Below, one piece after another: positions 7,972 to 50,161 of a stretch of DNA of 53,184 bases. The position numbers and the translations under genes are program-made. The stretch covers positions 1 through 53,184 of the forward strand of contig CAYMAF010000002.1 in NCBI GenBank assembly GCA_964388365.1. Reading direction: 5' to 3'. Below the pieces are notes generated by a model. The model did not search any database and was not told the origin of the DNA. It saw only the letters and a program-made list of their open reading frames with translations. Origin of the DNA: an uncultured Gammaproteobacteria bacterium. GTDB lineage: Bacteria; Pseudomonadota; Gammaproteobacteria; Steroidobacterales; Rariloculaceae. Positions within the stretch are counted from its first letter, which is position 1; each line of letters begins with the position of its first letter.

Positions 7972-7984
7972 TTCTTGAACGCCT

Positions 7985-13274: not shown

Positions 13275-13349
13275 GCTCCTCTCCCCGGCAGCTGCAAGTC
13301 GGAAGCGGAGAATTGTATCCTCTCCGTCTCACCCGAAAGAGAGGTAGTA

Positions 13350-13916: not shown

Positions 13917-14065
13917 CGATCCGCGGTTGCCGCGACGGCGCCCGTCACATGTTGCCGAGGCGCCGTCGTCCGGCACGACCGTCGACCTCGTGGGAGCGCG
14001 AACGACTGTGGTTCAGCAAGGCGCCGGGCGGCCCGAAGCCTTTAAGCCCACGTTCGCGACGCCGG

Positions 14066-14559: not shown

Positions 14560-14864
14560 GCTCCTGATATCGATCCGACTCGAACCGAACGCCGCGAGAC
14601 CGAAGATGCCGACAGCATGCGACATACAACATCTCTGCTACGCGGCTTTCCCGCACCGAGATATAGGATCGGCTGCGACGATGTCTGCATCGCTGCGCGC
14701 GGCTCGACCGGGGCTCTCGTCGCTCGCGAGGGCCCGGGGTTGCCTCGAGCGGCGAAATCGTTCAGGGTTCGCCCCCTGCGGATCCTACGCATCGCATCGA
14801 TCCTCGTCACGATGGCTCGACACGGAGGAAGACCAGTGCCGCCACGGCCGGCGCGCCCGTCGCA

Positions 14865-16589: not shown

Positions 16590-16675
16590 CGCGGCGGATC
16601 GCGCCTGTCTCGAGGCAGCTCAAGACTTGGGTTCGACTTACACTATCCCTCACTCGCCGCGCATAGGGGGGACTC

Positions 16676-17887
16676 ATGCCGGAGCCACTTACGCCGCTGC
16701 TATCGCGCCGCGCGCTGCTGCGCTTTCTTTCCGCGAGCCCGCTCGCATACGGTCTCGGGCTCGGACTCGGCCTGCGCGCCGGCGATGCGCTCGCGCAGCT
16801 CGACGGCTTGATCGAGGACGCGGCGCACGCCGTCAACGTGTTCGATTTCGAAGCGTACGTGAAGCGGCACATGCCGATCGGCCACTACACGTACATGGCG
16901 TACGGCGCGGACGATTCCGCGATGCTCGAGGTGAACCGGGAAGGTTTCCGGAAGATTCGGCTCCGTCCCCGGCGGCTCGTCGACGTCTCGACGATCGACA
17001 CGTCGGTCGCGCTGTTCGGCGCGCGCTACGCCGTGCCGATCTTCTGCGCGCCGTGCGGTGCGCAGCAGGCCTTCCATCCAGAAGGCGAGGTCGCGGTGGC
17101 GCGCGCGGCGCGCGCGAAGAATACGCTGCAGATTCTGTCGACCGTGACGAACCGCTCGGTTGAGGACGTCGCGAGCGCGCGGGGCGCGCCGATCTGGTTT
17201 CAGCTCTATCCGACGTCCGACTGGAACGTAACCCGCGCGATGATTCGCCGAGCCGAAGCTGCCGGCTGCACCGCGCTCGCGCTGACCGTCGATATCCCAG
17301 CGCGCAATATGGAAGCCAGCGCGAGACTGCGCCGCGACACGAACCGCGAGTGCATGAGCTGCCATACCGGCGATGCGTGGAGCACGAAAGCGATGTTCGC
17401 CGGCGTCAATATGTCGCGCTTGCGAATGGGAAGCGCCGGTCTCACCTGGGACTACGTCGACCGGCTGAAGGACTCGACGTCGATGAAGGTGCTCGTCAAG
17501 GGCATCGTGACGGCCGACGATGCGCTGATCGCGCTCGAGCGCGGCGTCGACGGCATCATCGTGTCGAATCACGGCGGACGGGCCGAGGCGAGCGGCGTCT
17601 CGAGCATCGAATCGCTTCAAGAAGTCGTGCCGGCCGTTCAAGGGCGCGTGCCGGTGCTCGTGGACAGCGGCTTTCGCCGCGGCACGGACATCTTCAAGGC
17701 GCTCGCGATCGGCGCGGACGCGATCTGCATCGGTCGGCCGTATCTCTGGGGTCTCGGCGCGTTCGGGCAATCGGGCGTCGAGCGCGTGCTCGATATCCTG
17801 ACCCGGGAGCTCGAGATCGTGATGGCGCAGATGGGCGCGGCAAACCTTGCAGAAATTTCCGCTCGCTCGATCGCCCTCTCGGGTTGA
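16676..17887 (+). CDS. FMN-dependent alpha-hydroxy-acid oxidase/dehydrogenase (glycolate oxidase / LldD family) with a twin-arginine leader
   Basis: Leader MPEPLTPLLSRRALLRFLSASPLAYGLGLGLGLRAGDALAQ. Family motifs include VSNHGGR and the TIM-barrel C-terminal GADAICIGRPYLWGL. Confidence 0.8.
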   Translation: MPEPLTPLLSRRALLRFLSASPLAYGLGLGLGLRAGDALAQLDGLIEDAAHAVNVFDFEAYVKRHMPIGHYTYMAYGADDSAMLEVNREGFRKIRLRPRRLVDVSTIDTSVALFGARYAVPIFCAPCGAQQAFHPEGEVAVARAARAKNTLQILSTVTNRSVEDVASARGAPIWFQLYPTSDWNVTRAMIRRAEAAGCTALALTVDIPARNMEASARLRRDTNRECMSCHTGDAWSTKAMFAGVNMSRLRMGSAGLTWDYVDRLKDSTSMKVLVKGIVTADDALIALERGVDGIIVSNHGGRAEASGVSSIESLQEVVPAVQGRVPVLVDSGFRRGTDIFKALAIGADAICIGRPYLWGLGAFGQSGVERVLDILTRELEIVMAQMGAANLAEISARSIALSG

Positions 17888-17908
17888 GCCGGCCGCGGGC
17901 AGGCGGGG

Positions 17909-18364
17909 TCAGTAGATCCCGCCGTGCGCCCAGATCACGCCCGCGGCCGAGGTCACGAGCGCAAGCGCGAGCAAGACCACGTGCATCAGGAGGAACGCGC
18001 GGGGCTTTCTCGCGATGCCGGTGCGGCGCATCAGCGCGAGCGGCTCGAGCACGAACAGGATCAGCATAAAGACCGCCCAGGTGACGATCATCAGGTCGAT
18101 CCACCAGCCAGCGGGCACCCACCGCAGGCGCGCGATACCGCCGAGGTACGCGAGCAGATACGCGCCGCTCACGCCGACGAGCAGCAGCGCAGCACGGGCC
18201 TGCCACACGAACCGCGCCCGGATCGTCCTGAAGATGCGCAACCGCTCGTCGTCCGAGAGACCTGCATTCCTCAGGGCCGGGAGAATCGAAGCGGTGACCA
18301 TCGCGACGCCGCCAACCCACCAGATCACGCCGAGCACATGCACGGCACGAGCGAGACTCAGCAT
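17909..18364 (-). CDS. Small 4-TM membrane protein, unknown function (CopD-like appearance)
   Basis: Start moved to ATG 18364 (MLSLARAVHVLGVIWWVGGVAMV). Four hydrophobic helices. Divergent from the Crp/Fnr gene across an FNR box. Confidence 0.5.
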   Translation of the reverse strand: MLSLARAVHVLGVIWWVGGVAMVTASILPALRNAGLSDDERLRIFRTIRARFVWQARAALLLVGVSGAYLLAYLGGIARLRWVPAGWWIDLMIVTWAVFMLILFVLEPLALMRRTGIARKPRAFLLMHVVLLALALVTSAAGVIWAHGGIY

Positions 18365-18486
18365 ACTCTGCGCCTCCGTTGCGTTAAGATCGCGCGTACC
18401 CTCTCGCTCTCTCGGGCAACCGTGATGCTGCCGAGCGCCGGGCACGGAAGTGCAGATAGTCTGAGAGACCGCGGACGGCTCGCGCC

Positions 18487-18500
18487 TTGATCGAGATCAA
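18487..18500. promoter_or_regulatory. Perfect FNR/Anr/Dnr-type box TTGAT-N4-ATCAA
   Basis: TTGATCGAGATCAA at 18487-18500. It ends 36 nt upstream of the Crp/Fnr-family ATG (18537), inside the 172-nt divergent intergenic region. It is the only perfect box I found in the window. Confidence 0.7.
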
Positions 18501-18536
18501 GACGGGCCGTTTCTCGAGGCGACGAGCATTCGGCCG

Positions 18537-19229
18537 ATGACCGACGATCCCGCAACTTCGCTGGCGGATCTCCGCAACCATCATCTATTTGCGGCCTTGA
18601 CCGACGAGCAGTGGTATCGGCTGATCCCACGCATCCACGCCCACGCCGTCGACACGAACGAGCACCTCTTCGCCCGCGGCGATCCGGCCCGGGCGTTCCT
18701 CCTGCTTCGGGAGGGTCTGATCAAGCTCTCTCGGGTCTCGCCGGAAGGTCACGAGAAGATCATGCGGTTGATCCGCACCGGCATGACGTTCGCGGAAAGC
18801 GTGATGTTCATGGACGAGCCTCGCTACCCGGTCCACGCGCAGGCGATCGAGCCGGGCACGGTGCTCGCAATCGAGTCGGACGCTTACCTCGAGATACTGC
18901 GCGAATCGTTCGAGACGTGCCGGACGGTGCTCGCGACGATGACGCAGCGGATCCACGCCCACTGGGACGAGATCGAGGCGCTGACGCTGCAGAACAGCCG
19001 CTACCGTGTCGTCACCTATCTGCTGAGACAGCTGCCGGACCAGGACCTCGAGGAGGCGCGCATCACGCTGCCGTCGCGCAAGGCGTTGATCGCCGCTCAG
19101 CTCGCGGCGACGCCCGAGACGCTGTCGCGCATCCTGCATGCGCTGCGCGAGGAAGGCCTCATCGAGATGCACGACTACGACGTCTACCTGCCGAGCGTCT
19201 CGAAGCTGCGGGCGAGCATCGGAGGCTAG
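18537..19229 (+). CDS. Crp/Fnr-family transcriptional regulator (Dnr/NnrR-like; no N-terminal Cys cluster)
   Basis: cNMP-binding-like beta-roll (FARGDPARAFLLLREGLIKLSRVSPEGHEKIM) and a C-terminal HTH with the E--SR recognition motif (PETLSRIL) used by FNR-type proteins to read TTGAT half-sites. Confidence 0.85.
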   Translation: MTDDPATSLADLRNHHLFAALTDEQWYRLIPRIHAHAVDTNEHLFARGDPARAFLLLREGLIKLSRVSPEGHEKIMRLIRTGMTFAESVMFMDEPRYPVHAQAIEPGTVLAIESDAYLEILRESFETCRTVLATMTQRIHAHWDEIEALTLQNSRYRVVTYLLRQLPDQDLEEARITLPSRKALIAAQLAATPETLSRILHALREEGLIEMHDYDVYLPSVSKLRASIGG

Positions 19230-19267
19230 CCACCTTGCTCCGTGCTCGGCGGCGTCCACTTGATTTT

Positions 19268-19295
19268 CTAATGGAGACGGCTACAGTTCCATTGG
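19268..19295. promoter_or_regulatory. Inverted repeat AATGGA-N12-TCCATT directly upstream of padR (candidate PadR operator)
   Basis: ctAATGGAgacggctacagtTCCATTgg. Arms at 19270-19275 and 19288-19293. It ends 2 nt before the padR ATG (19297). Confidence 0.35.
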
Positions 19296-19296
19296 G

Positions 19297-19641
19297 ATGT
19301 CTAATAAAGACAACAAGACGAGCTTCCTGCGCGGCACGCTGGACCTGATGATCCTGCAGTCGCTGGCGTCGGTCGGGTCGATGCACGGCTATACCCTCGC
19401 CGCGCGTATCGAGCAGGTCTCGGGGGGTGCGCTGAAGCCGAATATGGGCACGTTGTATCCGGGGCTGATGCGCCTCGAGCAGCGCGGGCTCATCCGAGGA
19501 AGCTGGGGCACGACCGAGAACAACCGGCAGGCCCGCTTTTACTCGATCACGCCGGCGGGGCGGCGGCATCTCGTCACGGAGAAGGAAAGCTGGGAGCAGA
19601 TGGTGTCGATCATGCAGACCCTGTTCAACGACCCCGCGTGA
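19297..19641 (+). CDS. PadR-family transcriptional regulator
   Basis: 114 aa. LRGTLDLMILQSLASVGSMHGYTLAARIEQVSGGALKPNMGTLYPGLMRLEQRGLI is the canonical PadR winged helix. Confidence 0.9.
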   Translation: MSNKDNKTSFLRGTLDLMILQSLASVGSMHGYTLAARIEQVSGGALKPNMGTLYPGLMRLEQRGLIRGSWGTTENNRQARFYSITPAGRRHLVTEKESWEQMVSIMQTLFNDPA

Positions 19642-19683
19642 GGTCTCGGCGGACGGTATGCAGCACGACCGAGGGGGAAGCGA

Positions 19684-22383
19684 ATGAAATACCTCGAGAT
19701 CGTGCGCGAATGGGCCGTTCGCCTTTGGGGGACTTATCGGCACTCGCCGAGCGACCGTGATCTGGAGCGCGAGCTCGACTTCCATCTCGAGATGATCGAG
19801 CAGGACTTGCTGCGCGAAGGCCACACGCCGCACGAGGCCGCTCGGCTCGCGCGCTTGCAGGTCGGCAGACCCTCGAGCGTCCTGAATGCACTGCAGGAGC
19901 AGCGCGGCATCCCTTGGCTCGGCCGCTTCTCGACCGATGTCGTGCTCGGCTGGCGCATGTTGCGCAAATCCTGGGGCATAACCCTGGTCGGCGGTCTCGC
20001 GATCACGATCGTCATCACGGTCGCGGCCGGTCTCGCGAGCTTTTTCCAGGTATTTACCGGAAGCAGCGTGCCGCTCGAGGAGGGCGATCGCGTCGTCGCG
20101 ATACAAATCTACGATCCGGCATCGAGGCAGCCGGCGAGGCCGACCCTTGCCGACTACGAGCGATGGCGCGGCGAGCTCGATTCCGTCGAGAACGTCGGCG
20201 CGTTCCGGACGGTGCGCCGCAGCCTCGTCGTCGGAGACGGGACCGGCTCGGCCGCATCCGAAGGAGCCGCCGAGGCGGTGTCCGTGGCCGAGATGTCGGC
20301 GTCCGGTTTTCGGCTCGCGCGCGTCGCTCCGCTCTTCGGCCGACCGCTGCTCGCTCGGGACGAGGCTCCGAGCGCGCCGCCCGTCGTCGTGATCGGCGAG
20401 AGCGTGTGGCGATCGCGTTTCGGTGCCGACCCGCAAGTCCTCGGGCAGAACATTCGACTGGGCGACAAAGTGCACACCGTCGTCGGCGTGATGCCGAACG
20501 ACTTCGGCTTTCCGGTCAATCATCGATACTGGGTGCCGCTGCGCGCGGACCGAATGGCCGATACCTGGAGCACCGGCCCCGATATCGTCGTGTTCGGAAG
20601 GCTCGCTCCGAGCGCGACGCTCGAACGCGCCGAGGCCGAGCTTTCCGCGATGGGCTTGTTCGCGGATCGAGCTGCTGCGGACGAGAACCTCGGCCGGCTG
20701 CGGCCTCGCGCGATGCCTTATGCCCGCGCATTCGCTCACATCGCGCCCGGCGATGCGGCGACCATCCTGCTGGTGGTGACGCTGCTGCTCGTGCCCCCGT
20801 GCGCGAACATCGCGATCCTCGTCTACGCCCGCACGGTCACCCGGCACGCGGAGTTCGCCGCCCGGGTCGCGTTCGGCGCGAGCCGTACCCGCATCGTCGC
20901 TCAAATCTTCATCGAGACGCTCGTGCTCGCGGCGCTCGCGGCGCTCGTCGCGCTCGCGGTCGCGCATTGGATCGTGTCCGGCGTCGAGGTCAGCATCGAT
21001 CAGAGCCCGGGCGCCAATCCGTTCTGGATCCGTCCGGGGATCTCGATACAGACGATCGCGTACGTCGCCGGCCTCGCCGTTTTCGCCGCGCTGATCGCCG
21101 GTGCCGTGCCGGCCCTGAAGGCCACGAGCGGCCTGCTGGGCGAAGGGCTGCGCGCACTAGGTAATCGCGTGAGCGCACGACTCGGCGCTACGTGGACCTC
21201 GCTCGTCGTCGCGCAGATCGCGCTGGCCGTCGCGATCCTTCCGACAGCGGCGGGCGTCACGTGGGGATTCTTACGTCCGAGCCTGCTCGAGCCGGGCTTT
21301 CCGGTCGCCGAATTCGCGACGGCGCGCCTCGAGCTCGACGCCATCGCTGTCCCGAACGGTCAGGCCGACGAGCGGGGCGCGCTCGAGCGCGAGCTCGCCG
21401 AGCTGCAACGCGAGCTTGCCGAGCGGCTCGGCGGCGAAGGCATCTCGGTCGTGTCGTTCTCGAGCGCCGTCGCGGGCGCAGAGCCGGCGCTCGAGATCGT
21501 CGTCGACGAAGCCGGCGACACCGGCGAGCGCCGGCTTACTGCGCACCACGACGTGCGCGTCAACCGAATCGATGCCGCGTTCCTCGACGCGTTCGGAGCG
21601 CGAATCCTCACCGGGCGCCGGTTCGAAGCAGGCGATTTCGACGCCGACAGCACGGCGGTGATCGTGAGCCGCTCGTTCGCGCGCGACATCCTCGGCGACG
21701 CGAGCCCGTTGGGTCGCGAGGTACGCTACGCGGAGCCGTCGCCGGGGATCGAGCGGCGCTACGAGATCGTCGGTGTCTCGACCGACGTGCCCGCAAACGA
21801 CGAGAGGCCGGCGATGTATCACCCGCTCGCGCCCGGACAGCAGAATCCGGTCACGCTGGCGTTGCGATTGCCGATGGATCGAGCCGGCCTGGCGGACCGG
21901 CTGCGGGCGCTTGCGACACGCATCGACGCGCGGCTCGGCGTCGACGAGTACAGAACGCTCGACGAGACATACGCCGAGCTACGCGCGCAAAACGAGGCCG
22001 CGGCTCGCGCCCTGTTGATCGTGACCTCGAGCGTGCTGCTGCTGTCGGCGGCGGGCATGTATGCGCTGATGTCCTTCACGGTGAATCAACGCCGACGGGA
22101 GATCGGCATTCGTGCCGCGCTCGGCGCGCAACCGGGGCAGCTCCTTGCCGGCGTGTTCCGCCGGGCATTCGCTCAGGTCTCGATCGGGGCCGCGGCCGGA
22201 ATGGTCCTCGCGTCCATCGTGGGCCGATACCTGCCGATGGATCGGCTCGGCGTCCCGGCGATCCCGGGCCTGCCGCTCGCGGCCGCCGTGTTCATGGTGC
22301 TCGTCGGCGTCGTCGCGGCGATCGGCCCCGCGAGACGCGCGCTGCGTGCCGATCCTACTGAAGGCTTGCGCGAGGATGGCTGA
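19684..22383 (+). CDS. ADOP-type duplicated orphan permease (two MacB/FtsX-like permease modules, no adjacent ATPase gene)
   Basis: 899 aa. The characteristic N-terminal cytoplasmic segment (RDLERELDFHLEMIEQDLLREGHTPHEAARLARLQ) is followed by TM, a large periplasmic domain and an FtsX block, and this is repeated. The gene sits directly downstream of padR, as in described PadR-ADOP pairs. Confidence 0.8.
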   Translation: MKYLEIVREWAVRLWGTYRHSPSDRDLERELDFHLEMIEQDLLREGHTPHEAARLARLQVGRPSSVLNALQEQRGIPWLGRFSTDVVLGWRMLRKSWGITLVGGLAITIVITVAAGLASFFQVFTGSSVPLEEGDRVVAIQIYDPASRQPARPTLADYERWRGELDSVENVGAFRTVRRSLVVGDGTGSAASEGAAEAVSVAEMSASGFRLARVAPLFGRPLLARDEAPSAPPVVVIGESVWRSRFGADPQVLGQNIRLGDKVHTVVGVMPNDFGFPVNHRYWVPLRADRMADTWSTGPDIVVFGRLAPSATLERAEAELSAMGLFADRAAADENLGRLRPRAMPYARAFAHIAPGDAATILLVVTLLLVPPCANIAILVYARTVTRHAEFAARVAFGASRTRIVAQIFIETLVLAALAALVALAVAHWIVSGVEVSIDQSPGANPFWIRPGISIQTIAYVAGLAVFAALIAGAVPALKATSGLLGEGLRALGNRVSARLGATWTSLVVAQIALAVAILPTAAGVTWGFLRPSLLEPGFPVAEFATARLELDAIAVPNGQADERGALERELAELQRELAERLGGEGISVVSFSSAVAGAEPALEIVVDEAGDTGERRLTAHHDVRVNRIDAAFLDAFGARILTGRRFEAGDFDADSTAVIVSRSFARDILGDASPLGREVRYAEPSPGIERRYEIVGVSTDVPANDERPAMYHPLAPGQQNPVTLALRLPMDRAGLADRLRALATRIDARLGVDEYRTLDETYAELRAQNEAAARALLIVTSSVLLLSAAGMYALMSFTVNQRRREIGIRAALGAQPGQLLAGVFRRAFAQVSIGAAAGMVLASIVGRYLPMDRLGVPAIPGLPLAAAVFMVLVGVVAAIGPARRALRADPTEGLREDG

Positions 22384-32962: not shown

Positions 32963-35614
32963 ATGTCAATGAAATCTCGCGTGCCGCTTCTTGCGTTAGC
33001 CGTGCCGGCGTGCTTCCTGTTCGGCGGTCATACGATTGTCGAGGCGAAGCCGACTCTGTGGTCGGATCCCGCGACCTGGCCCGAAGGCCGCGTGCCCGCC
33101 GAAGGCGATGCCGTCGTCATCGACAGGGACATGGAGGTCGTGCTCGACGTCAGCCCGCCGCCGCTCCGCAGCTTGACGATCGGCGGGAAACTCAGCTTCG
33201 CGAACGATAAGGACCTCGAGCTGATCACCGACTGGATCCTGTTGCACGGCGAGCTGCATATCGGCAGCGAGGCCGAGCCGCATACGCGCAACGCGACGAT
33301 CACGCTGGTCGACAACGTCCCCGGCGAGGACATCAACACGATGGGCGACCGCGGGATCCTGATCATGGGCGGGACCCTGAGCCTGCACGGCGATCGCGTC
33401 CACACGTGGACGAAGCTCGCGAGGACCGCCGAGGCCGGCAGCACGACGATCGAGGTGTTGGACGCGAGCGGCTGGCGGGTCGGCGATGTGATCGTCCTCG
33501 CGTCGACGGACTTCGATTTCAAGCAAGCCGAGAAGCGGACGATCGCCGCGATCGACGGCAACGTCATCACGCTCGACCGCGCGCTAGAGTACATGCATTT
33601 CGGCGAGATCACGTTCGGCGTCGACGAGCGCGGCGAGGTGGGCTTGCTCACGCGCAACATTCGCATTCAGGCGGCCGAGGATGCCGACCGCACGTACCAG
33701 GGCGGGCACATCATGGCGATGCCCGGCAGCAAGATGTACGTTTCGGGCGTCGAGCTCTATCGGATGGGCCAGCACCTGCAGCTCGCCCGGTATCCGATTC
33801 ACTGGCATCTGCTCGGCGACGCGACGGGGCAGTTCCTCAAGAACTCCGCGATCCACAACACCTACAGCCGGTGCGTGACCGTGCACGGCACGGACAACCT
33901 GCTGATCGAGAACAACGTGACCTACGACAACGTCGGTCACTGCTTCTTCATGGAGGACGGCATCGAGACCGGTAATCGGTTCGTCCGGAACTTGGGGATG
34001 ATGACGAAGTGTCATCCGACGAAGCCGTGCAATCCGACGAATCTAGGGGTTCCCGGAGAAAGAGGCGACGGGAACGGCCAACGCGCCGACGATGTGCTGA
34101 TCCCGTCGGACAACACGGTCTCGACGTTCTGGATCACGAATCCGTCGAACCATTATATCGGCAATGTCGCCGCGGGCTCGGAGGCGAACGGCTTTTGGGT
34201 CTCGCTGCCGGAGCACCCGACCGGCCAGTTCGAGGGCACGGAGATCAGCCTGAACACCTGGCCGCGGCGGATGCCGCAAGGGGAGTTTCGCGGCAACGTC
34301 GCGCACTCTAACTTCGACGGCCTGATGTTCGATCGGAACGCCGGGGCCGACGGGACGTTCGGCGTGACCGGCAGCTCGCATATCGCCCGCGAGAATCCCG
34401 CGGACCCGAATAGTAAGTCGATCGAGTCGCTGATCGAAGACTTTACCGCGTACAAGAACCGGAACGGAGGCATCTGGGCCCGGGGCGAGATGAAGGTCTT
34501 CAGAGACCTGAAGCTCGCGGACAACGCGATCGGCTTCACGATGGCGTCCGGCTCGATCGGCCGCGATCCCTTCACGTCGAAGGTCGTCGACTCGCTGTTC
34601 GTCGGGGAGACCGACAACATCGGCAACCCGCGCACTCCGGAGGAGAAGGCCTACGGCCGCAGCCTGCCGAAGCCGCACGTCCCGGATTTCCCGATTCGCG
34701 GCTACGAGTTCTACGACTACCTTCATTCGGTCGAGAACACGACCTTCGTGAACTACGAGGACAACGACACGCGCGAGACCGGAGCGATGTCGTATCTGCT
34801 GTACACGAGCTTCGGAATGAGCGTAGAGAACGCCGTGAAGGGCGCGAAGTTCGTCAATGCGAAGCCGGTGCACTTCCCTCGGAAGGAGCGTAAGTGGGCC
34901 AACGATACCGGGAGCAGCTCCGCCTATACGAGCGCGACGATCCATGATCTCGACGGCTCGGTCAGCGGTGTGCCGAACTCGTACATCGTCATCGACAACG
35001 GTATCGCGTCCGACGACGAAGCGTGCGAGATCAAGCCTTCGTGGGGCGCCGCCGTGTGCCGTGGCGACTTCGGCCGCCTCAGCGTCGGCGGCCCCGGCGG
35101 CCCTGGCGGCCCCGGCTTCGGCGGATTCGCCGGCTTTGCCGGCCCGGGCGGGGCGCCCGGCTCCGGCGCGGCCCCGGGTCGCTCCAGGCCTCCCGGTGCC
35201 GGCGGGCCTCCCGGTGCCGGGGCGCCGGCCGGTCCGGGCGGAGGCTTCGCGGGATTCGGCGGTCCTCCGGCCGAGCCCGTGACGCTCAGCCGTAACGGAA
35301 GACAGTTCGAATATACCGGGCAGACGACGATTCGGAGCGGTGCCGAGGTCCGGGTCGACACGGCCAGGGAGTCCGTATCCCTTACGCTGTCGGAGATGGA
35401 CCACGGCTCCTGGGTAATCTTCGAGCTGCCGGGATTCAAGACCGCCGCCTCGGGCAAGAAGCAGAGGAGCCTCGACGCGCTGCACAAGGCCGATGAGACC
35501 TCGTACTACAAGAGCGGCGACACGCTGTGGGTCAAGCTCGTCGTCGAGAATCCCGAAGGCGTGAACCGTCCCGGCCCGATGGGCCCCAGCACCCGCATCG
35601 ACGTCAGCAGGTAA
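32963..35614 (+). CDS. Secreted G8-domain / right-handed beta-helix protein (CEMIP/KIAA1199-TMEM2-like), with an internal Gly/Pro-rich linker
   Basis: Signal peptide MSMKSRVPLLALAVPACFLFGGHTIVEA. G8-like N-terminus (WSDPATWPEGRVPAEGDAVVIDRDMEVVLD...LTIGGKLSF...LHGELHIG...ILIMGGTLSLHG). Beta-helix block YPIHWHLLGD...HNTYSRCVTVHGTDNLLIENNVTYDNVGHCFFMEDG. 883 aa. Confidence 0.7.
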   Translation: MSMKSRVPLLALAVPACFLFGGHTIVEAKPTLWSDPATWPEGRVPAEGDAVVIDRDMEVVLDVSPPPLRSLTIGGKLSFANDKDLELITDWILLHGELHIGSEAEPHTRNATITLVDNVPGEDINTMGDRGILIMGGTLSLHGDRVHTWTKLARTAEAGSTTIEVLDASGWRVGDVIVLASTDFDFKQAEKRTIAAIDGNVITLDRALEYMHFGEITFGVDERGEVGLLTRNIRIQAAEDADRTYQGGHIMAMPGSKMYVSGVELYRMGQHLQLARYPIHWHLLGDATGQFLKNSAIHNTYSRCVTVHGTDNLLIENNVTYDNVGHCFFMEDGIETGNRFVRNLGMMTKCHPTKPCNPTNLGVPGERGDGNGQRADDVLIPSDNTVSTFWITNPSNHYIGNVAAGSEANGFWVSLPEHPTGQFEGTEISLNTWPRRMPQGEFRGNVAHSNFDGLMFDRNAGADGTFGVTGSSHIARENPADPNSKSIESLIEDFTAYKNRNGGIWARGEMKVFRDLKLADNAIGFTMASGSIGRDPFTSKVVDSLFVGETDNIGNPRTPEEKAYGRSLPKPHVPDFPIRGYEFYDYLHSVENTTFVNYEDNDTRETGAMSYLLYTSFGMSVENAVKGAKFVNAKPVHFPRKERKWANDTGSSSAYTSATIHDLDGSVSGVPNSYIVIDNGIASDDEACEIKPSWGAAVCRGDFGRLSVGGPGGPGGPGFGGFAGFAGPGGAPGSGAAPGRSRPPGAGGPPGAGAPAGPGGGFAGFGGPPAEPVTLSRNGRQFEYTGQTTIRSGAEVRVDTARESVSLTLSEMDHGSWVIFELPGFKTAASGKKQRSLDALHKADETSYYKSGDTLWVKLVVENPEGVNRPGPMGPSTRIDVSR
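35087..35277 (+). repeat. Low-complexity Gly/Pro/Ala/Phe-rich linker inside the G8 protein
   Basis: GGPGGPGGPGFGGFAGFAGPGGAPGSGAAPGRSRPPGAGGPPGAGAPAGPGGGFAGFGGPPAEP. It contains the direct repeat cctcccggtgccgg at 35189-35202 and 35207-35220 (18-bp period). Confidence 0.8.
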
Positions 35615-43283: not shown

Positions 43284-43934
43284 TCACGGCCTGCGGCCGA
43301 CGTACCACCGAACACCGAGCGTCATCTCTCTCGTCGGCTTTCGCGGCAGATGGTACTGACGCACTTCTCCGATCAGCGCCCAGGTCGGTGCGAATGAGTA
43401 CTCCGCGCCTAAGCCGAGCAGCCAATCGCGGCCATCGATACGCGCTCGGTCGATTCGCGTTTCCTCGTTCTCGGTGGCGTAGGCGGCTTCCCAATCGAAT
43501 ACGCCGACTCGCGCGAGAAGCTCCACGCGCTCGAGAAGCGGTTGGCGATAGAGCCCGGAGACGACATAGCCGTCGCCGGAGCTCGGATGCACGTATGCGA
43601 GTCCCTCGGCCAGCTGGGGCGCGTCGAACGAGACCTTCACCTCACCCAGATCGAGATAGCCGGCTTCGACGGCCCATCGCTTCGAGACTGCATAGCCCGC
43701 TGCGATCTCGAACGTCGCGCGTTCCTCATCGACGGCCGTGACGGTCGCATTGATGCCCCGTGCCGCGAAATCGGATTCCAGATCGAACCGGCTGATGCCC
43801 GTATCCGCGAACCCGAGCCGCGCTGCAACATACAGCGAGCCGCGATCGAAACCGCGGTCGGCATACGCGATCGGATGCGCAAAGGCCATGACCGCCGCAA
43901 GGGCTGCGCACGCCGCACGCGAGACGCGGCGCAC
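43284..43934 (-). other. Signal-peptide-like segment plus 8-strand OmpA/OmpX-like beta-barrel module. It is either the true C-terminus of the giant protein or a separate 216-aa OMP starting at the in-frame GTG 43934
   Basis: VRRVSRAACAALAAVMAFAHPIAYA / DRG... is followed by eight amphipathic alternating strands: SLYVAARLGFA, TFEIAAGYAV, WAVEAGYLDLG, GYVVSGLYRQP, VELLARVGVFDW, DWLLGLGAEYSF, WALIGEVRQYH, MTLGVRWYV. Confidence 0.55.
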
Positions 43935-46900
43935 GCGGCGAGCACCGCGGTGCCGAGTCGATGTCGGCCACGACCGTGCGCCGCACCGCCGACGATAGAG
44001 CTTGCGACAGGCTGCGAAGACGAATAGGCCCAGGATGCTTTGCCACCCGAAGGCACCGCCGCCTCCACCGCCCCCGCCGGTCGTGTACGAGATCTGGCCG
44101 ATCGTGCCGACCCCGCCTGGATCGCGGATCGCACCATTCACCAAGCCGTCCGCGTCGTTCGGGCCGCCGTCCTCGATCGTGAGCTCCACGCACCAATGCC
44201 CCGGCGTGAGGCCCGGCTGGTAGTCGTCGCTGCCCGGCGGCGGGCACACGCCCGGCTCGCCGGGCGCGGAAGCCAAATGGTTCCGCGCGTCCTCGACGAA
44301 CGTGAACCATGAACCGTTGTACTTGCGATACACGGGCTGCGTCGGGATCCCAGCGCGCTGCGGGATAACGATCGAGATCGACGCTCCGGCCGTCGGAATC
44401 TCCCGTACGACGAAGTCGAAGTACCCGCCGACGTTGGTGATCGAGTCGGACTCTATGTCGACCTCGCCAACCTCATCCTCCGGAATCGCTGCGCCCGCGC
44501 CGCCGAGAAGCTGCGCGGAATCGCCGAGGACGAGCCGGACGCCAGGATCCGCCTCGATCAGGAACAACCCCCCATCGTCCGCGCGCTCCGCGAGCACGTT
44601 CAGTTGGCTTATCGCATCGAGATAGTCCGGGATCCCGTCGCCGTCCGCGTCGCCGTAGCCCTCGTCCGCGTCCGGAATCCCGTCGCCGTCGCTGTCGAGA
44701 TCCGAGGCAAGCATGGGTGCGGCAGCCACAACCCGGAACGACTCGATGACCTCGGTCTCGAGCGGCGGCATACCGTCGTCGCGAACGACGAGCCGCACCT
44801 CGTACACGCCCGGCTGCAAGCTCATCGGATCGAGCGCCTTGAGCGTATCGCCCATGTCGACGATCGCCGCCGCCGCAGGGAACGACCACTCGATGACATG
44901 CTGGTCCTGCGGATTCGGATCGTCGATCTCAGCCGAGAAGAGCACGGCTCCGCCGTCCATCGTCAGGAGCCGCGCCGGCCTCGATCCCTGACCGACCGTC
45001 AACGACGCCCGAGGCGCGACGTTCTCTTCGACGATGGTCACGACCTGTGAGCTTCGCGCACCGAAATTCCCGGAGCCAACGAGGCTGACCTCGATCGTTT
45101 CAGGGCCTTCGACGATGTCGTCCGCGAAGATCGTGAAATCGACGCGCTTCTCGGCCTCGCCTTCTTCGAACACGACCGAGCCCGGAAGGAGATCGTGGTC
45201 GACACCGACCGTCGCGGTGCCTCCGATCGCATACTCGACGACGACCGGATACGCCGGCGATTCGCCGTTCAGGTGGAAAGTCACCGATACGGTCGAGCCT
45301 TCCGCGCGCACCTGGTCTCTGCCGAGCGAGATCTGCGGGTGCAGGAGAACCCGCTGCGTCACCTGCGCCTCGTTACCGGCCGAATCCACGACGGTCCACG
45401 TGACCGTATGGGCACCCGGCGGCAGGTACGGCGCATCGCCCGAGAGGACCGGCGACAGCTCGCCGTCACGGTCGTCGAACGCGGTCGGGGCGACGAGCGC
45501 CGGGAACGGAGTCAGAAGCCCAGTCGCGTCCAGCTCGACGACCGAAGGCACAGAGAGGCGCGGAGCATAGTCGTCGACCAGCGGATTCGTTCCCGCCTCG
45601 AACTCGTCGACGTTCGGCACACCGTCCTGATCCGCGTCGGCCAAAGCATCGGATGGGTCGAACGGATCGAACCCGTGCTCGAGCTCGTATTCGTCGGGCA
45701 TTCCATCCATGTCGCTGTCGAGCACGCCGTGCACATGAATATCGAACGCCGGGAGCGCGGTGCTCGCCTCGCCGTCCGAGACGCGCAGCACGATGCCCGA
45801 GTACGTGCCGACGTGCATGGCCAGAGGCGTGCCATGCAACACGCCCGTCTCGGAATCGAGCGTGAGCCACTCGGGCAGGTTCACGGCCGACACGGTCAGC
45901 GCATCGCCTTCGACGTCCGCGATCACAGGCGCGAACGAGTAGGGCTCACCGGCATCGACCACCGTTGTAGGAGTGCCCTCGATCGTCGGCGCGTCGTTGA
46001 CAGGCAGCACCGAGATCCACACCGTCGCTTCGTTCGACACGCCGAGCTCGTCGTCGGACACGGTGTACGAGAACGAGTCCTCGCCGTTCCAATCCGGGTC
46101 GGGCACGTAGAGGATCGTGCCGTCGAGCTCGACGTGAACCTCGCCGTGTGAAGGCGCCCGAACGACCGTGACCGATTGCGGGTCGAGGTACCCGTCGATG
46201 TCCTCGTCGTTCGCGAGCACGGCGATCGTGACGGGTTGATCCTCATCGGTGGTCGCGCTGTCATCGTTCGCGAGAGGCGCGTCGTTCACGCTCTCGACCG
46301 TGAAGTAGACCGTCGCGACGTTCGACCACGCGCCGTCCTCGTCTTGAACGCGGTACGTCAAAGTATCTTCGCCGAAGAAGTTCTCGCCCGGCGTGTACGT
46401 GATGACCCCGATGACCGGATTCACCGCGGCCGTACCGTGCTGCGGGGGCGACACGATATCGACCGTCTCCGGTCTGATGGCATTGTCGACGTCGGTATCG
46501 TTGCCAAGGACGTTGACCACATGCGCGGTGTCCTCGAGCAACACGGCGGTGTCGTCCACGGCGACGGGCGGATCGTTCACGCTCTCGATCGTGATCGAAA
46601 CGCGCGCGGGCGCAGACGTCGCGCCTTCTTCGTCCCTCACGACGTACGTAAATTCATCCTCGCCGTAATAGTCCGGCGCGGGCGTATACGTGATCGTGCC
46701 GGTCGCAGCGTTGACCGTAGCCATTCCGTGATCGGGGTCGTCGACGACACGCACCGTCGTCCGATCGATCATGCTGTCGATATCGTAATCGTTCGCCAGG
46801 ACGAAGATCTCGACCGGCTCGTCCTCCTTGGTGAGGGCGATATCGTCCGTCGCACGGGGCGCATCGTTGATGCCGGCGACGTTGATGATCACGAACGCCT

Positions 46901-49868
46901 CGTTCGAGACCGCGCCGGCGTAATCTCGAACGGTGTACGTGAGCTCGTCCGTGCCGTAGAAATCGAGGTCTGGCGTGTACAGGATCATGCCGCTCACGAC
47001 CTCGGCCGTGCCGTGCTTCGGGCCGCTGACCACCGCGAGGCTCGACGGATCGATTTCGTCCGGTCCATCGACGTCAGCGTCATTGGCAAGAACATCGATG
47101 TAGGTCGGCTCGTCCTCGTCGGTCGACACCGCATCGTTCACCGCCGCCGGCGGATCGTTCACCGGATGAACGGTCACGGTTACGCGCGCTTGCGACGTGC
47201 TGCCGAGTAAGTCGTCGACCGCGTAGTAAAAGACGTCCGTGCCGTTGAAGTTCTCATCTGGGGTAAACGTTATGATCCCCGTTCCGGTATTCACGCTCGC
47301 CGAGCCGTGCTCCGGCGCTTGAACGATGCGGACGCTCGCGGGGTTGAGACTCGAGACCGCATCCGCGTCATTCGCGAGCACGGCGATCTGGACGCTCTCG
47401 TCCTCGTTCGTGTCGGCCTCGTCGTCGGCCGCGTTCGGAGGGGTCACGTCGATGATCACTGTGAGCGCCGCGGAAGACGGAGACAGATTGCCGGCGGCGT
47501 CCGCCGCGATCGCCGTGATCCCGTGCACGCCCTCGGACAGCGGGACGCTCGAGACCAATGACCAGTTACCCGCTCCGTCGGCCGTCGTCGAGCCCAAGAA
47601 TCCATCGACGTCGCTGAAGACCTCAATCGTCGCACCAGGCTCGGCCGTGCCGTTCAACTTCGGTTGGAGGACGCTCGTGATGTTGTCCGTGCTGGAGACG
47701 CCCGAATCGCTGGCCGGATCGAGATCCGGCGCGGGAGGCATGCTCGGGGGCGTCGTGTCCAGCACCGCGGCCGCCGTCGCCGGCTGCCCTTCGTTACCGA
47801 CCGCGTCGGTAAGCGTGACCGACAACGTCAATACCCCGTCCGCAAGTGCCCGGAGATCGACGGAAGAGACGGCTTGCGCAGCTTCATCCTCGATGGTGCC
47901 CGATCCCGTCACGGGTATTCCGCCGCCGCTCGACGAGATCGAGTAGGTGAAGGCCGCGCCGAACTCGCCTTGGAGGATCTCGAAGCTCGCCGAACTCGCC
48001 GTCACGGCGTTGAACGCCGGGTAGTCGAAGGTGACGCCGTACCCCGTCGGCGGAGTCGCATCGAGGTCGGCGGTGTCCGTGACGGCGTCTGCCTCACCCG
48101 CGTCGTTCGCGAGCACGGCGGACAAAGTCAGCGTGCCGTCCTCGAGCGAGCGCAGATCGATATTCGAGATCGTTTGATTCGGGCTCGTGATCGTGCCCGA
48201 CCCCGTAACAGGCGTGCCGCCGCCGCTGGAGGTGATTTGGTAGTGATAGTCCGCACCGACCTCGGCGTTCGAGAAGCTGAAACTCGCATTGGTCGCATGA
48301 GCTACCGTGAAGAGCGCGCGATCGAACGATACGCCATGCCCAGAGGGCACTACCACGCCGGTGCCCGTCACGGTAATAGCGTAGGACGCGGTCGCCGGGG
48401 CAACGACTGGAATGTTGAACGAGTCGCCCGCAGCTCCCACCGAGCTCGGCGCCATTCGAACGGTGATCGAACACGAATCGCCGAGCCCGAGCAGCGCATT
48501 CGAGCACTCGTCGACGACGATCGAGAAAGGCGGTTCGAGGGCATCAAAGTTTCCGACCGCCGCAATCGATAGAGGCTCACCGTGGTTCGTGACCGTGACG
48601 GCCCGGTCAGCCGAGCCGTCGACCGCGACGCCGCCGAAGTCGATAGTCTGCGGCGAGATGTCGTAGTCGGCGTCGATGATGGAGATTCGAGTGCTCGCGA
48701 CGTTCTCCTGAAGAATACCGCCGTCGACGATCGCGGAGATCGAGGTCACGGACGAGACTCCAGCCGGAACGCCGCTCGGAACTATCACTTCGACGGGAAC
48801 GGAAACGCGTTCCAGAGGCCGAACTTCGAAGGCGGAGCCCTGCGGAAAGCGCGTCAGCCATCCCTGACTATTGACTACGCTGAGCTCGAAGGTATGGCGA
48901 TTACTGTCATCGAGATTGTGGACCTTGAACGTCTGAACGACCGTCGCATCGGCCGGCGCGCTCGCATCCGCGGGCGAGATGACCTGCACAACCAAAGGAT
49001 GCGTCCAGGTCTCGAACATCTCGATGATCCACGTCTCGCCGGGGGCGAGCGTCGATCGATTCCATTGCAACGCGTAGCCGGCATCGATGTAGTCCGAGTT
49101 CGCGGCGTTCGGAAGGGACGTTCCGTCCCACACCGCATTGACGGTATCTTCCCAGTCGCCCGCCATGAAACCATCCGCAGGAGTGGCCGGATTCGTGTAG
49201 ACACCCATGATGCCGGATTCGGAGAACTCGCTGTTGGTGAGATACAAGATGCGGAGATCGGGATCCCACCACGAGCGCGAACTATCGTATCCGCCGAAAT
49301 AGGTATCACCGCCGTGATAGAACCGCAGATTGCTCAAAGAGGCGGAAGCCGAGCTCGTCAGCTCCCAGCGCTTCTTGACGTACAAATCACCCGGCGAATA
49401 GCTGATCGTTTGGCGCAGCTCGAGACCGGTCTCGCTCGCCCAGACGGTCTCGATCGTCCAGTCATCGGGCTTCTGGTGACTGATCAACGCCCACGAAACT
49501 GGACCACCTCCGCGATTAGGTGGGTTGTTGATCGCGAAAGGGCTCTTGAACAGCGGCGTTCCGTCGGTCCACAACGTGCTACCGAAGGAATCATCCGAAT
49601 AGTATTGCCTAATCACGCCACCGGGCTGACACACCCACGCGGCCACATCGCCGAGGCTACCGGCGGCGTACATGATCGGATCGCCTTCGATGACGAGCCA
49701 CGCCTGATTCTTGTCGAGCTGGCCACCGTAGTTCTTTTCGAACTCGGGCGTGTGGCCGTTCGCCGCGCAACCGAGCTCGACGGCGTATGCACGACTCGTC
49801 AGCACCGACACGAGGACAAGGGCAGCCGCAAAGCCGCGCGCTACGGCAATCGATGGAAATTCCCGCAT
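43284..49868 (-). CDS. Giant (2194 aa from ATG 49868) secreted multi-domain adhesin-like protein that continues in frame into an OMP-type beta-barrel
   Basis: Signal peptide MREFPSIAVARGFAAALVLVSVLTSRAYA. Approximate domain order:
- unrecognised ~300-aa N-terminal domain
- Ig / choice-of-anchor-D-like region
- 2 x ~100-aa repeats
- Big-like domain (SSTDNITS...GTAEPGATIEVF...DGAGNWS)
- 5 x 95-97-aa VNDxP...DED...LANDxD repeats
- cadherin-like putative-Ig domain
- thrombospondin-type-3 Ca-binding motifs (DSDMDGMPDEYE, DADQDGVPNVDE, DSDGDGIPDADE, DADGDGIPDYLD)
- HYR-like and Calx-beta-like domains (VEYAIGGTATVGVDHD...VEGPETIEVSL)
- choice-of-anchor-U-like domain (IEDGGPNDADGLVNGAIRDPGG)
- Gly8, TM helix, RRR
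- barrel. Confidence 0.85.
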   Translation of the reverse strand: MREFPSIAVARGFAAALVLVSVLTSRAYAVELGCAANGHTPEFEKNYGGQLDKNQAWLVIEGDPIMYAAGSLGDVAAWVCQPGGVIRQYYSDDSFGSTLWTDGTPLFKSPFAINNPPNRGGGPVSWALISHQKPDDWTIETVWASETGLELRQTISYSPGDLYVKKRWELTSSASASLSNLRFYHGGDTYFGGYDSSRSWWDPDLRILYLTNSEFSESGIMGVYTNPATPADGFMAGDWEDTVNAVWDGTSLPNAANSDYIDAGYALQWNRSTLAPGETWIIEMFETWTHPLVVQVISPADASAPADATVVQTFKVHNLDDSNRHTFELSVVNSQGWLTRFPQGSAFEVRPLERVSVPVEVIVPSGVPAGVSSVTSISAIVDGGILQENVASTRISIIDADYDISPQTIDFGGVAVDGSADRAVTVTNHGEPLSIAAVGNFDALEPPFSIVVDECSNALLGLGDSCSITVRMAPSSVGAAGDSFNIPVVAPATASYAITVTGTGVVVPSGHGVSFDRALFTVAHATNASFSFSNAEVGADYHYQITSSGGGTPVTGSGTITSPNQTISNIDLRSLEDGTLTLSAVLANDAGEADAVTDTADLDATPPTGYGVTFDYPAFNAVTASSASFEILQGEFGAAFTYSISSSGGGIPVTGSGTIEDEAAQAVSSVDLRALADGVLTLSVTLTDAVGNEGQPATAAAVLDTTPPSMPPAPDLDPASDSGVSSTDNITSVLQPKLNGTAEPGATIEVFSDVDGFLGSTTADGAGNWSLVSSVPLSEGVHGITAIAADAAGNLSPSSAALTVIIDVTPPNAADDEADTNEDESVQIAVLANDADAVSSLNPASVRIVQAPEHGSASVNTGTGIITFTPDENFNGTDVFYYAVDDLLGSTSQARVTVTVHPVNDPPAAVNDAVSTDEDEPTYIDVLANDADVDGPDEIDPSSLAVVSGPKHGTAEVVSGMILYTPDLDFYGTDELTYTVRDYAGAVSNEAFVIINVAGINDAPRATDDIALTKEDEPVEIFVLANDYDIDSMIDRTTVRVVDDPDHGMATVNAATGTITYTPAPDYYGEDEFTYVVRDEEGATSAPARVSITIESVNDPPVAVDDTAVLLEDTAHVVNVLGNDTDVDNAIRPETVDIVSPPQHGTAAVNPVIGVITYTPGENFFGEDTLTYRVQDEDGAWSNVATVYFTVESVNDAPLANDDSATTDEDQPVTIAVLANDEDIDGYLDPQSVTVVRAPSHGEVHVELDGTILYVPDPDWNGEDSFSYTVSDDELGVSNEATVWISVLPVNDAPTIEGTPTTVVDAGEPYSFAPVIADVEGDALTVSAVNLPEWLTLDSETGVLHGTPLAMHVGTYSGIVLRVSDGEASTALPAFDIHVHGVLDSDMDGMPDEYELEHGFDPFDPSDALADADQDGVPNVDEFEAGTNPLVDDYAPRLSVPSVVELDATGLLTPFPALVAPTAFDDRDGELSPVLSGDAPYLPPGAHTVTWTVVDSAGNEAQVTQRVLLHPQISLGRDQVRAEGSTVSVTFHLNGESPAYPVVVEYAIGGTATVGVDHDLLPGSVVFEEGEAEKRVDFTIFADDIVEGPETIEVSLVGSGNFGARSSQVVTIVEENVAPRASLTVGQGSRPARLLTMDGGAVLFSAEIDDPNPQDQHVIEWSFPAAAAIVDMGDTLKALDPMSLQPGVYEVRLVVRDDGMPPLETEVIESFRVVAAAPMLASDLDSDGDGIPDADEGYGDADGDGIPDYLDAISQLNVLAERADDGGLFLIEADPGVRLVLGDSAQLLGGAGAAIPEDEVGEVDIESDSITNVGGYFDFVVREIPTAGASISIVIPQRAGIPTQPVYRKYNGSWFTFVEDARNHLASAPGEPGVCPPPGSDDYQPGLTPGHWCVELTIEDGGPNDADGLVNGAIRDPGGVGTIGQISYTTGGGGGGGGAFGWQSILGLFVFAACRKLYRRRCGARSWPTSTRHRGARRVRRVSRAACAALAAVMAFAHPIAYADRGFDRGSLYVAARLGFADTGISRFDLESDFAARGINATVTAVDEERATFEIAAGYAVSKRWAVEAGYLDLGEVKVSFDAPQLAEGLAYVHPSSGDGYVVSGLYRQPLLERVELLARVGVFDWEAAYATENEETRIDRARIDGRDWLLGLGAEYSFAPTWALIGEVRQYHLPRKPTREMTLGVRWYVGRRP
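43986..44078 (-). other. Internal sorting-signal-like segment: Gly8, hydrophobic helix, basic cluster (GlyGly-CTERM / PEP-CTERM-class architecture)
   Basis: GGGGGGGGAFGWQSILGLFVFAACRKLYRRR read directly from the minus strand. The eight Gly are encoded by mixed GGN codons at 44055-44078. Confidence 0.6.
46002..47447 (-). repeat. Five tandem in-frame repeats of 285-291 bp (95-97 aa) inside the giant gene
   Basis: Unit boundaries marked by V/I-N/T-D/P-x-P codons at 47447, 47162, 46871, 46580, 46289 and 46001 (spacings 285, 291, 291, 291, 288 nt). Each unit reads xNDxPxAxxDxxxTxEDxPVxIxVLANDxDxD...TYTPxxxFxGxDxFTYxVxD. Confidence 0.85.
47745..48345 (-). repeat. Two tandem ~100-aa repeats inside the giant gene
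   Basis: GHGVSFDRALFTVAHATNASFSFSNAEVGADYHYQITSSGGGTPVTGSGTI...DGTLTLSAVLANDAGEADAVTDTADLDATPP aligns with TGYGVTFDYPAFNAVTASSASFEILQGEFGAAFTYSISSSGGGIPVTGSGTI...DGVLTLSVTLTDAVGNEGQPATAAAVLDTTPP. Confidence 0.7.
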
Positions 49869-50161
49869 CTTCACAATAGAACCGTTGAATGATTTATCGG
49901 AGCCGACCGTTTTTCTGGGTGGGCACACGAGCTTTATAGGAAAGCGGTGCACGCATGTCGTCGATCGGAGTCGCAGTTCGCAGCTTTGTAAGGAGTCGAG
50001 CGCGAGCGACGACACGAACCGAGAAGATCGAATGACTCGTGCGCGAGGAAAGAAGAAGACTGGTTGGTACAATCGAAGCCGACGGTAGCGGCATCGGGCG
50101 AGGCGTCGAAAACTTTCCTACCCAACGACGTGGATAGCAAAGCACGTCGAATCGCGGGATC

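Follow-up and report, generated by a model that had tools for sequence, protein, structure and literature searches.

The 53,184-nucleotide (nt) stretch analysed here (the window; contig CAYMAF010000002.1 of an uncultured gammaproteobacterium in the Rariloculaceae, 65% G+C) carries on its minus strand one gene, 43284..49868, in which a giant adhesin, an internal sorting tag of the GlyGly-CTERM type, an internal signal peptide and an OmpA-like outer-membrane beta-barrel are joined in a single reading frame. This fusion is almost certainly genuine and conserved, and the fused form is the majority state across the species sampled. It is probable, in our estimation, that the gene encodes a two-product precursor that would be resolved in the inner membrane by two proteases. 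A preliminary description of this DNA had offered two readings of the junction, a precursor bearing its own barrel and two genes fused in frame; both prove to be true and amount to the same thing, the fused gene being real, with 54 fused open reading frames (ORFs) and eight split loci among its relatives.

The fused gene and its parts

Translation of the minus-strand open frame at 43284-50072 yields a single uninterrupted ORF, within which gene callers on independent contigs place the start at ATG 49868, giving a 6585-nt gene and a product of 2194 amino acids (aa) followed by the stop. The product opens with a Sec-type signal peptide, MREFPSIAVARGFAAALVLVSVLTSRAYA (49782..49868, on the minus strand like every part described here), in which a basic n-region, a hydrophobic core and an AYA site can be read by inspection. 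The passenger (44439..49781) contains, by NCBIfam and Pfam models, a choice-of-anchor D domain, Big_13, five or six tandem-95/cadherin-like repeats, He_PIG, HYR and Calx-beta. A choice-of-anchor U domain (44106..44438; CPPPG ... DPGGV) comes next, just ahead of the sorting signal, and is recognized by NF041766 at 41.7-46.5 bits (cutoff 32). GTDB contains 485 loci in which this domain is conserved, and in the window protein the match ends 9 residues ahead of a glycine run, GGGGGGGG (44055..44078), that forms the GlyGly-CTERM-type signature and is the proposed region of rhomboid or rhombosortase cleavage.

Beyond the glycine run stands the hydrophobic helix of the tag, AFGWQSILGLFVFAAC (44007..44054; TM1, a putative stop-transfer anchor), and then an arginine-rich loop of 30 aa (43917..44006), presumably cytoplasmic, with 13 lysine or arginine residues and no aspartate or glutamate. 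The loop begins RKLYRRR, continues CGARSWPTSTRHRGARRVRRVSR and leads into a second hydrophobic stretch, AACAALAAVMAFAHPIAYA (43860..43916; TM2), that would provide the core and cleavage region of an internal signal peptide cut just before DRGF. The loop has two roles, closing the tag as its basic cluster and opening the second signal as its n-region, and in several relatives the RRR cluster alone is tag end and next n-region at once, as in P0003 (...LLRYRRTLIVVSTLVVAAQTQA, then DGL). The remaining 191 aa (43287..43859) form an OmpA-type 8-strand outer-membrane barrel that runs from DRGFDRGSLYVAARLG to MTLGVRWYVGRRP, directly before the stop codon at 43284-43286. The placement and reading order of the parts in the preliminary description match this translation, as does its count of 233 codons beyond the RRR cluster, all of which lie in the same ORF. 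It had also reported no stop codon in any minus-strand frame between 43985 and 43935; in fact the whole of 43900-44010 is open in all three.

Profile models recognize the choice-of-anchor domains, the barrel and, once excised, the tag above their cutoffs. The GlyGly-CTERM model TIGR03501 (cutoff 15.5) gives 18.2 bits for the 52-aa tag taken alone and 14.5 bits for the tag within its 255-aa surroundings, and it matches 67 of 88 tags excised from fused relatives. The tag had been described as either GlyGly-CTERM-like or PEP-CTERM-like, and only the first half of that assignment stands: no PEP motif is present, the PEP-CTERM model touches just 2 of the 88 related tags, and a PEP-CTERM/exosortase reading is rejected. 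In the last 216 aa, OmpA_membrane (PF01389) scores 43.0 bits (cutoff 21) and OMP_b-brl (PF13505) 37.1 bits (cutoff 28.7). When the last 290 aa were modelled with AlphaFold2 from an alignment of 7 sequences, two helices fell on the two hydrophobic stretches and were followed by the 8-strand barrel at a predicted local distance difference test score (pLDDT) of 80-95. In a Foldseek comparison of this fold with the Protein Data Bank (PDB), OmpA transmembrane domains rank first (E 5e-10, TM-score 0.75-0.81 on target), followed by Ail, OprF-N, NspA and OmpX, all of the 8-strand class; autotransporter barrels rank 22nd or lower, at TM-scores of 0.29 or less.

No NCBIfam model covers the barrel subfamily or the cassette as a whole, the best match being AcfA_fam_omp at 21.5 bits (cutoff 100). 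As to a C-terminal aromatic beta-signal, related barrels end ...YRF, ...FNF, ...YDF or ...LNY, and the window protein ends ...VRWYVGRRP, with an aromatic residue 6 from the end. The segment ahead of the barrel resembles a signal peptide with an AYA site, but is internal; it is positionally homologous to the true N-terminal signal peptides of barrel genes that stand alone after the adhesin gene in other species. Inspection led us to reject TM2 as a lipoprotein signal, there being no lipobox around its cysteine (in RAAC) and no cysteine at that place in relatives.

The reading frame itself is well attested. The exact 2194-aa protein is recorded on 20 contigs, and four assemblies agree on every base of the 6585-nt gene: one from ENA (L002, a contig of 92.9 kb) and three from Logan, made from different sequencing runs (L003-L005). 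A second allele (P0236) differs by a G-to-E change upstream and leaves the junction unchanged, and the domains on the tag side and on the barrel side share one reading frame. An assembly error is rejected on the strength of these four identical assemblies, the 20 contigs and the variant allele with the same junction.

Fused, split and tag-only relatives

A search of metagenomic proteins with the last 471 aa of the precursor recovered relatives (P0002, P0003, P0007 and P0009, and also P0006 and P0012) at 35-41% identity and 89-99% query coverage, the alignments spanning the tag, the second hydrophobic stretch and the barrel. A barrel profile built from seven barrels and searched against 1.84 billion representative proteins gave 6969 matches at E<1e-3, 228 of them at E<1e-30. 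Among the best 150 of the 6969 matches, which were classified by architecture, at least 70 have the barrel at the very end of a large protein (up to 4896 aa) with the elements in the same order: [S/G]GG, hydrophobic helix, basic cluster, second helix ending in a small-x-small site, barrel. Another 37 of the best 150 are standalone barrels with their own signal peptide, and in 15 the barrel is joined to an OmpA_C peptidoglycan-binding domain; some fused proteins carry the barrel plus an OmpA_C domain. Isolate examples of the fused form include Hahella sp. HN01 (WP_216738196.1), Hahella sp. CCB-MM4 (WP_094711549.1) and Ca. Thalassolituus haligoni (WP_369856253.1), all three annotated just as 'tandem-95 repeat protein'; RefSeq labels such genes only 'tandem-95 repeat protein' or 'Ig-like domain-containing protein'.

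Species-representative genomes in GTDB were scanned with the choice-of-anchor-U alignment, which gave 485 relatives; the best 79 loci were kept and their ORFs searched locally with hidden Markov models. The named records among these loci are all Gammaproteobacteria, one metagenome-assembled genome being labelled only Pseudomonadota. The fused form is found at 53 of the 79 loci (54 ORFs), a split two-gene form at 8, and an ordinary tag without an adjoining barrel at 18; Rheinheimera, Cellvibrio, Hahella, Litoribacillus and Shewanella are among the isolates with the fusion. Cultured strains that carry the fused gene include Rheinheimera pacifica DSM 17616, Cellvibrio mixtus J3-8, Litoribacillus peritrichatus JCM 17551, Shewanella abyssi DSM 17171 and Hahella ganghwensis DSM 17046. 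The ordered cassette has now been seen in more than 120 diverged proteins, which is far beyond chance. The arrangement, which the preliminary description took to be unusual for this class of sorting signal, is therefore a family feature, unannotated yet spread through many gammaproteobacteria of marine and soil origin, rather than a peculiarity of the window. Most homologous adhesins end in a canonical GlyGly-CTERM tag.

Some genomes carry several such genes. In Cellvibrio fontiphilus two fused choice-of-anchor-U adhesin genes lie side by side (L046:3737-11092 and 11881-20331), and in Litoribacillus peritrichatus one fused gene and two tag-only genes fall within ~45 kb (L018/L033/L049; NZ_BAABBN010000012.1, 581-625 kb). 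On the contig that encodes P0003 (L006) the giant gene is called as two overlapping pieces in different frames, 1-7350 and 7308-9119, for which either a frameshift in that assembly or a genuine interruption of the gene shortly before the choice-of-anchor-U domain would account. Upstream of two unrelated fused-adhesin loci, L007:1751-9991 (Hahella sp. CCB-MM4) and L009:5086-9990, the same set of genes occurs, for an Asp/Arg hydroxylase, sulfotransferases and phage-tail-collar (PF07484) proteins; 10 nt separate the end of the final sulfotransferase gene from the adhesin start. This set could be an adhesin-modification cluster.

The split loci indicate what the second hydrophobic stretch is. At all eight, a barrel gene with its own Shine-Dalgarno sequence, ATG and signal peptide begins right after the stop of the adhesin's tag. 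In Ferrimonas sediminum (L085) the adhesin ends ...SGSGGTLNWFIALFALAALCRRNLGHQVKRRG at its stop, the DNA AAGGAGGGGTTGAGCAATG follows, and the barrel gene starts MENHNKSFLVAIALPLVSAMLFVPVRASA ahead of DESPW. In this locus and in Agarivorans (L090) both ORFs are in the same frame with a single stop codon between them; in L043, L069 and L078 the adhesin and barrel genes overlap or abut, as do traA and traB of Myxococcus xanthus. The split loci thus point to TM2 of the fused proteins as the signal peptide that belongs to the barrel and has stayed in position. By nearest neighbour the two kinds of barrel, fused and standalone, are interleaved: for 26 of 58 standalone barrels the closest sequence is a fused one, and this distribution points to repeated fusion or fission. 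Taken together with the OmpA fold and the forms that join the barrel to OmpA_C, the interleaving identifies the C-terminal module as an autonomous outer-membrane protein.

All of these states are present within the window gene's own clade. The adhesin genes of L001 (P0001; 76% nucleotide identity to the window gene) and L013 end in the tag, without a barrel, and L014 (P0125) is fused through a long basic loop of different sequence. Homology between the window and L001 ends at window position 44004, the end of TM1, and the next gene in L001 encodes a PAP2 phosphatase. A stop codon and independent Shine-Dalgarno and start for the barrel, directly after the tag, had been suggested as something to look for in close relatives, as a sign of an assembly error or a trivial two-gene layout; the closest do not show it, having either the tag with no barrel (L001, L013) or the fused form (L014). 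At L001:389-961 and 1062-3211 the adhesin gene appears to be broken upstream by a transposase-like HTH_21 gene.

A proposed processing route and its rivals

Junction anatomy was summarized for 141 fused proteins, 124 of which have two uncharged hydrophobic stretches before the barrel. In these 124 the loop that connects the helices spans 1-37 aa (median 7) and carries, by median, 4 lysine or arginine residues and no aspartate or glutamate; its net charge is about +3.8. A GG or SG motif opens the first helix in 119 of the 124, and a small-x-small site closes the second helix in 119 as well. The second helix ends a median of 4 residues ahead of the barrel, with about 4-8 residues from TM2 to the first strand. 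So short a connection is unable to bridge the periplasm, and cleavage between TM2 and the barrel is therefore required. This rules out the suggestion in the preliminary description that the adhesin is covalently continuous with its barrel anchor, as 4-8 residues cannot link an inner-membrane hairpin to an outer-membrane barrel.

The probable reading of this anatomy is that two proteases resolve the precursor. The N-terminal signal peptide would send the ~1900-aa passenger through Sec; TM1 would stop transfer and leave the arginine-rich loop in the cytoplasm, and TM2 would restart translocation, the two helices forming a hairpin. Signal peptidase I would cut after AYA, freeing the barrel with the new N-terminus DRGFDRG... 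for insertion into the outer membrane by the beta-barrel assembly machinery. With its GlyGly-type helix the adhesin would at this stage be a type I membrane protein and a plausible substrate of a rhombosortase or rhomboid, and a rhombosortase or other rhomboid protease would cut it at the glycine run. After this cut it would be lipid-modified and moved to the cell surface, as VesB is; in the VesB pathway the rhombosortase removes the tag and the new C-terminus is lipid-modified (PMC6219818). The hairpin would be a discarded piece, and the barrel, made in 1:1 stoichiometry, would most likely be the adhesin's dedicated outer-membrane partner or dock. A direct functional partnership of barrel and adhesin is argued by the fusion/fission pattern across species.

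Rhombosortase genes adjoin two independent fused genes. On the contig of P0002 (L008) a convergent gene of 201 aa lies 4 nt after the stop of the fused gene and scores 125.8 bits with TIGR03902 (cutoff 84); in L012 (P0176, whose passenger lacks choice-of-anchor U) a 214-aa gene overlaps the stop of the fused gene by 4 nt and scores 148.1 bits. In single-target genomes, a rhombosortase and its target lie within one gene of each other in 16 of 21 cases (Haft and Varghese, PMC3237569), and by this rule a rhombosortase next to a fused gene is the signature of a dedicated enzyme-target pair.

Several points weigh against the proposed route. Searches with phmmer and jackhmmer, seeded with two true rhombosortases, found none in the window together with L002 (about 63 kb read) and none within 10 kb of any of the 79 GTDB loci, although the latter is expected where a genome has several targets. 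Cellvibrio is a genus rich in fused forms, and Cellvibrio japonicus was without a rhombosortase in the 2011 survey even though the tag was reported (PMC3237569). The position of the tag is a further point. By definition GlyGly-CTERM closes the protein, 0-5 residues following its basic cluster, and this placement was proposed to aid substrate selection (Haft and Varghese 2011); in the window precursor, which has the N-terminal signal peptide of a canonical target, 233 codons follow the RRR cluster. The window loop is unusually long and its codon-position G+C pattern is atypical. Steps beyond the anatomy itself are ones that we infer from sequence, and the role of the barrel as a dock, the weakest step of the model, is a guess. 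Finally, the model does not account for a few relatives, of two kinds. In P0102, P0104, P0110, P0204 and L027:4349-12328 the barrel (starting WYxWxD) directly follows the last cadherin-like repeat, without tag or hydrophobic helices. P0160 and P0194 have a glycine motif and a single hydrophobic stretch ending in small-x-small, then the barrel, without a basic cluster. These two resemble a hairpin that has collapsed, and if their hydrophobic stretch is a transmembrane helix, the barrel would end up on the incorrect side of the membrane.

A candidate enzyme closer to the window gene was considered as well. A rhomboid-family gene encoding 356 aa with a long N-terminal extension, the only rhomboid gene nearby, lies ~8 kb upstream of the adhesin (L002:910-1980, minus strand; it would fall at 57889-58959 in window coordinates, outside the window). 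Its assignment as a rhombosortase is not supported, at 39.5 bits against the cutoff of 84, another point that counts against the route, and it is also below the GlpG cutoff (46.6 bits against 250).

Should signal peptidase alone act, TM1 would be a plain stop-transfer anchor that stays uncut, the barrel would be released, and the adhesin would remain tethered to the inner membrane in the periplasm or be shed in some other way. This is what the absence of a rhombosortase near the window gene and the 79 GTDB loci, the report on C. japonicus and the non-terminal position of the tag would favour. Still, a plain anchor would hardly explain why the glycine-rich signature is kept in 119 of 124 junctions and why TIGR03501 matches 67 of 88 tags, nor does it sit well with the rhombosortase genes that abut two fused genes or with orthologous adhesins that end in ordinary GlyGly-CTERM tags. 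Classical rhomboid substrates have long cytoplasmic tails past the transmembrane helix, and GlpG is reported to cut VesB as well (PMC11389362). A 1900-aa passenger of cadherin and Ig repeats is moreover typical of surface adhesins. On balance, action by signal peptidase alone is rather unlikely.

The unusual loop of the window gene allows a further reading, that the fusion is recent and non-functional in this lineage, a stop having been lost, a formerly intergenic arginine-rich stretch being translated and the barrel no longer productively made. The 30-aa loop is at the long end of the family range, against a median of 7; its codon-position G+C (0.77/0.83/0.73 across 43890-43979) is unlike that of the flanks (about 0.7/0.45/0.8); an in-frame GTG within it could be an old start; and the nearest relatives, L001 and L013, lack the barrel. 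The loop may indeed be a fossil of an earlier intergenic region and start codon, to judge from its composition. However, 13 basic and no acidic residues are what a cytoplasmic hairpin loop needs, and the similarly long basic loop of the nearest fused relative, L014 (P0125), differs in sequence, which argues that the fused state has been maintained. The barrel is also intact, with its fold predicted at high confidence, and the fused form is the majority across species. For these reasons a non-functional fusion seems improbable.

The in-frame GTG (43932-43934), which lies right ahead of a complete-looking signal peptide, might alternatively start a separately made barrel, read-through from the adhesin being incidental; the preliminary description had proposed this codon as the start of the outer-membrane protein. 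The 20 nt upstream of it (...CGGCACCGCGGTGCTCGCCGC, directly before GTG) contain no Shine-Dalgarno-like purine run, which makes separate initiation unlikely in the window gene. Many relatives have a loop of only 1-7 aa, with no room for a start site, and the split forms display what a real start looks like (AAGGAGG ... ATG). Internal initiation is accordingly very improbable.

The hairpin could also be conceived as a ligation cassette, in which a rhomboid-type enzyme would resolve its acyl intermediate onto the barrel N-terminus made by signal peptidase (DRGF...) and not onto lipid, so joining adhesin to barrel and excising the hairpin. The hairpin-less P0102, P0104, P0110, P0204 and L027 would then be a genetically hard-wired equivalent of the ligated product. 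This scheme faces a topology problem, the N-terminus of an OmpA-type barrel being periplasmic, and we hold it to be a highly improbable one.

An artefactual fusion or a trivial pair of genes, a stop or frameshift between tag and barrel having been lost in assembly or sequencing, might be suspected from the three open frames, the odd codon-position G+C of the loop, the split forms in other species and the closest relative P0001, which stops right after the tag, but it is effectively refuted already by the base-identical gene in four assemblies from different runs, its product on 20 contigs, the second allele and shared frame, the same fusion in 54 GTDB ORFs (complete isolate genomes included) and at least 70 diverged cluster representatives, and the PAP2 phosphatase, not a barrel, that follows the tag in L001 once DNA homology ends at 44004.

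Known systems, implications and neighbouring genes

Among known systems the window precursor is nearest to GlyGly-CTERM/rhombosortase sorting (TIGR03501/TIGR03902; VesB of Vibrio cholerae). The glycine-rich motif, hydrophobic helix and basic cluster are shared, the excised tag passes the model, the tag follows a choice-of-anchor domain as in many canonical targets, and a rhombosortase stands beside two fused relatives. It differs in that the window tag is internal, with 233 residues after it in place of the canonical 0-5, and in that a second signal peptide uses the basic cluster of the tag as its n-region. Because it lacks the extreme C-terminal position, the window tag is not a plain member of the GlyGly-CTERM class, even if it works like GlyGly-CTERM sorting.

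For the partnership of barrel and adhesin, the closest precedent by analogy is TraA/TraB of Myxococcus xanthus, where the gene for a surface adhesin with a C-terminal MYXO-CTERM tag directly precedes, with a 4-nt overlap, the gene for an OmpA-like partner, and the two products are required for one shared function (PMC3325183). The likeness is one of gene layout: split relatives likewise have a tagged adhesin and then a barrel, and some fused relatives carry the barrel plus OmpA_C. The type of tag and the processing enzyme differ, and here the two genes are fused in one ORF. The barrel itself resembles the N-terminal transmembrane domain of OmpA (PF01389; PDB 1QJP and 9FZC), with a score above the Pfam threshold and a fold TM-score of 0.75-0.81 on target; sequence identity is only about 17%, and the window barrel is the tail of a giant precursor.

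Classical autotransporters (type Va) likewise start with a signal peptide, continue with a large passenger and finish with an outer-membrane barrel, all as a single chain. Their barrels have 12 strands and not 8, however, two inner-membrane-type helices separate passenger from barrel in the window protein, and a passenger cannot thread a barrel of OmpA size. An autotransporter reading is rejected, given the 8-strand barrel, the hairpin and the weak fold matches to autotransporter barrels.

Flavivirus and pestivirus polyproteins combine a stop-transfer helix with an internal signal cut by signal peptidase, and so give two products from one translation. The transmembrane hairpin logic of the window precursor is the same, but the viral proteins are processed in the eukaryotic endoplasmic reticulum, with no rhomboid-type cut. 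To our knowledge there is no bacterial precedent for a polyprotein built on a stop-transfer/internal-signal hairpin. The literature searched, with incomplete coverage, gave neither such a precedent nor a description of the internal-tag/barrel architecture, which is absence of evidence only.

The fused genes bear on how rhombosortase targets are sought. GlyGly-CTERM/rhombosortase sorting has been defined, and searched for, as strictly C-terminal, and one large adhesin family has more internal tags than terminal ones. Terminal-only searches miss such targets, and the missed tags may explain genomes that were reported with a rhombosortase but no target (PMC3237569). An OmpA-family barrel also emerges as a specific and previously unremarked partner for giant adhesins of the rhombosortase type. 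The pattern of fusion and fission is a strong genomic sign of a functional tie, and it makes the delivery or holding of lipid-tagged giant adhesins at the outer membrane a testable matter. If the proposed processing is true, two membrane proteases would resolve a single envelope polyprotein by way of a stop-transfer/re-start hairpin, and this would be a new kind of bacterial precursor.

Two further large genes of surface type lie near the adhesin. Outside the window, L002:2651-4504 (plus strand) encodes a 617-aa protein with no precomputed Pfam match, in which NCBIfam indicates trimeric-autotransporter head repeats (BimA, YadA and EmaA models, all below cutoff). Within the window, at 32963-35614 on the plus strand, an 883-aa G8/CEMIP beta-helix protein is encoded.

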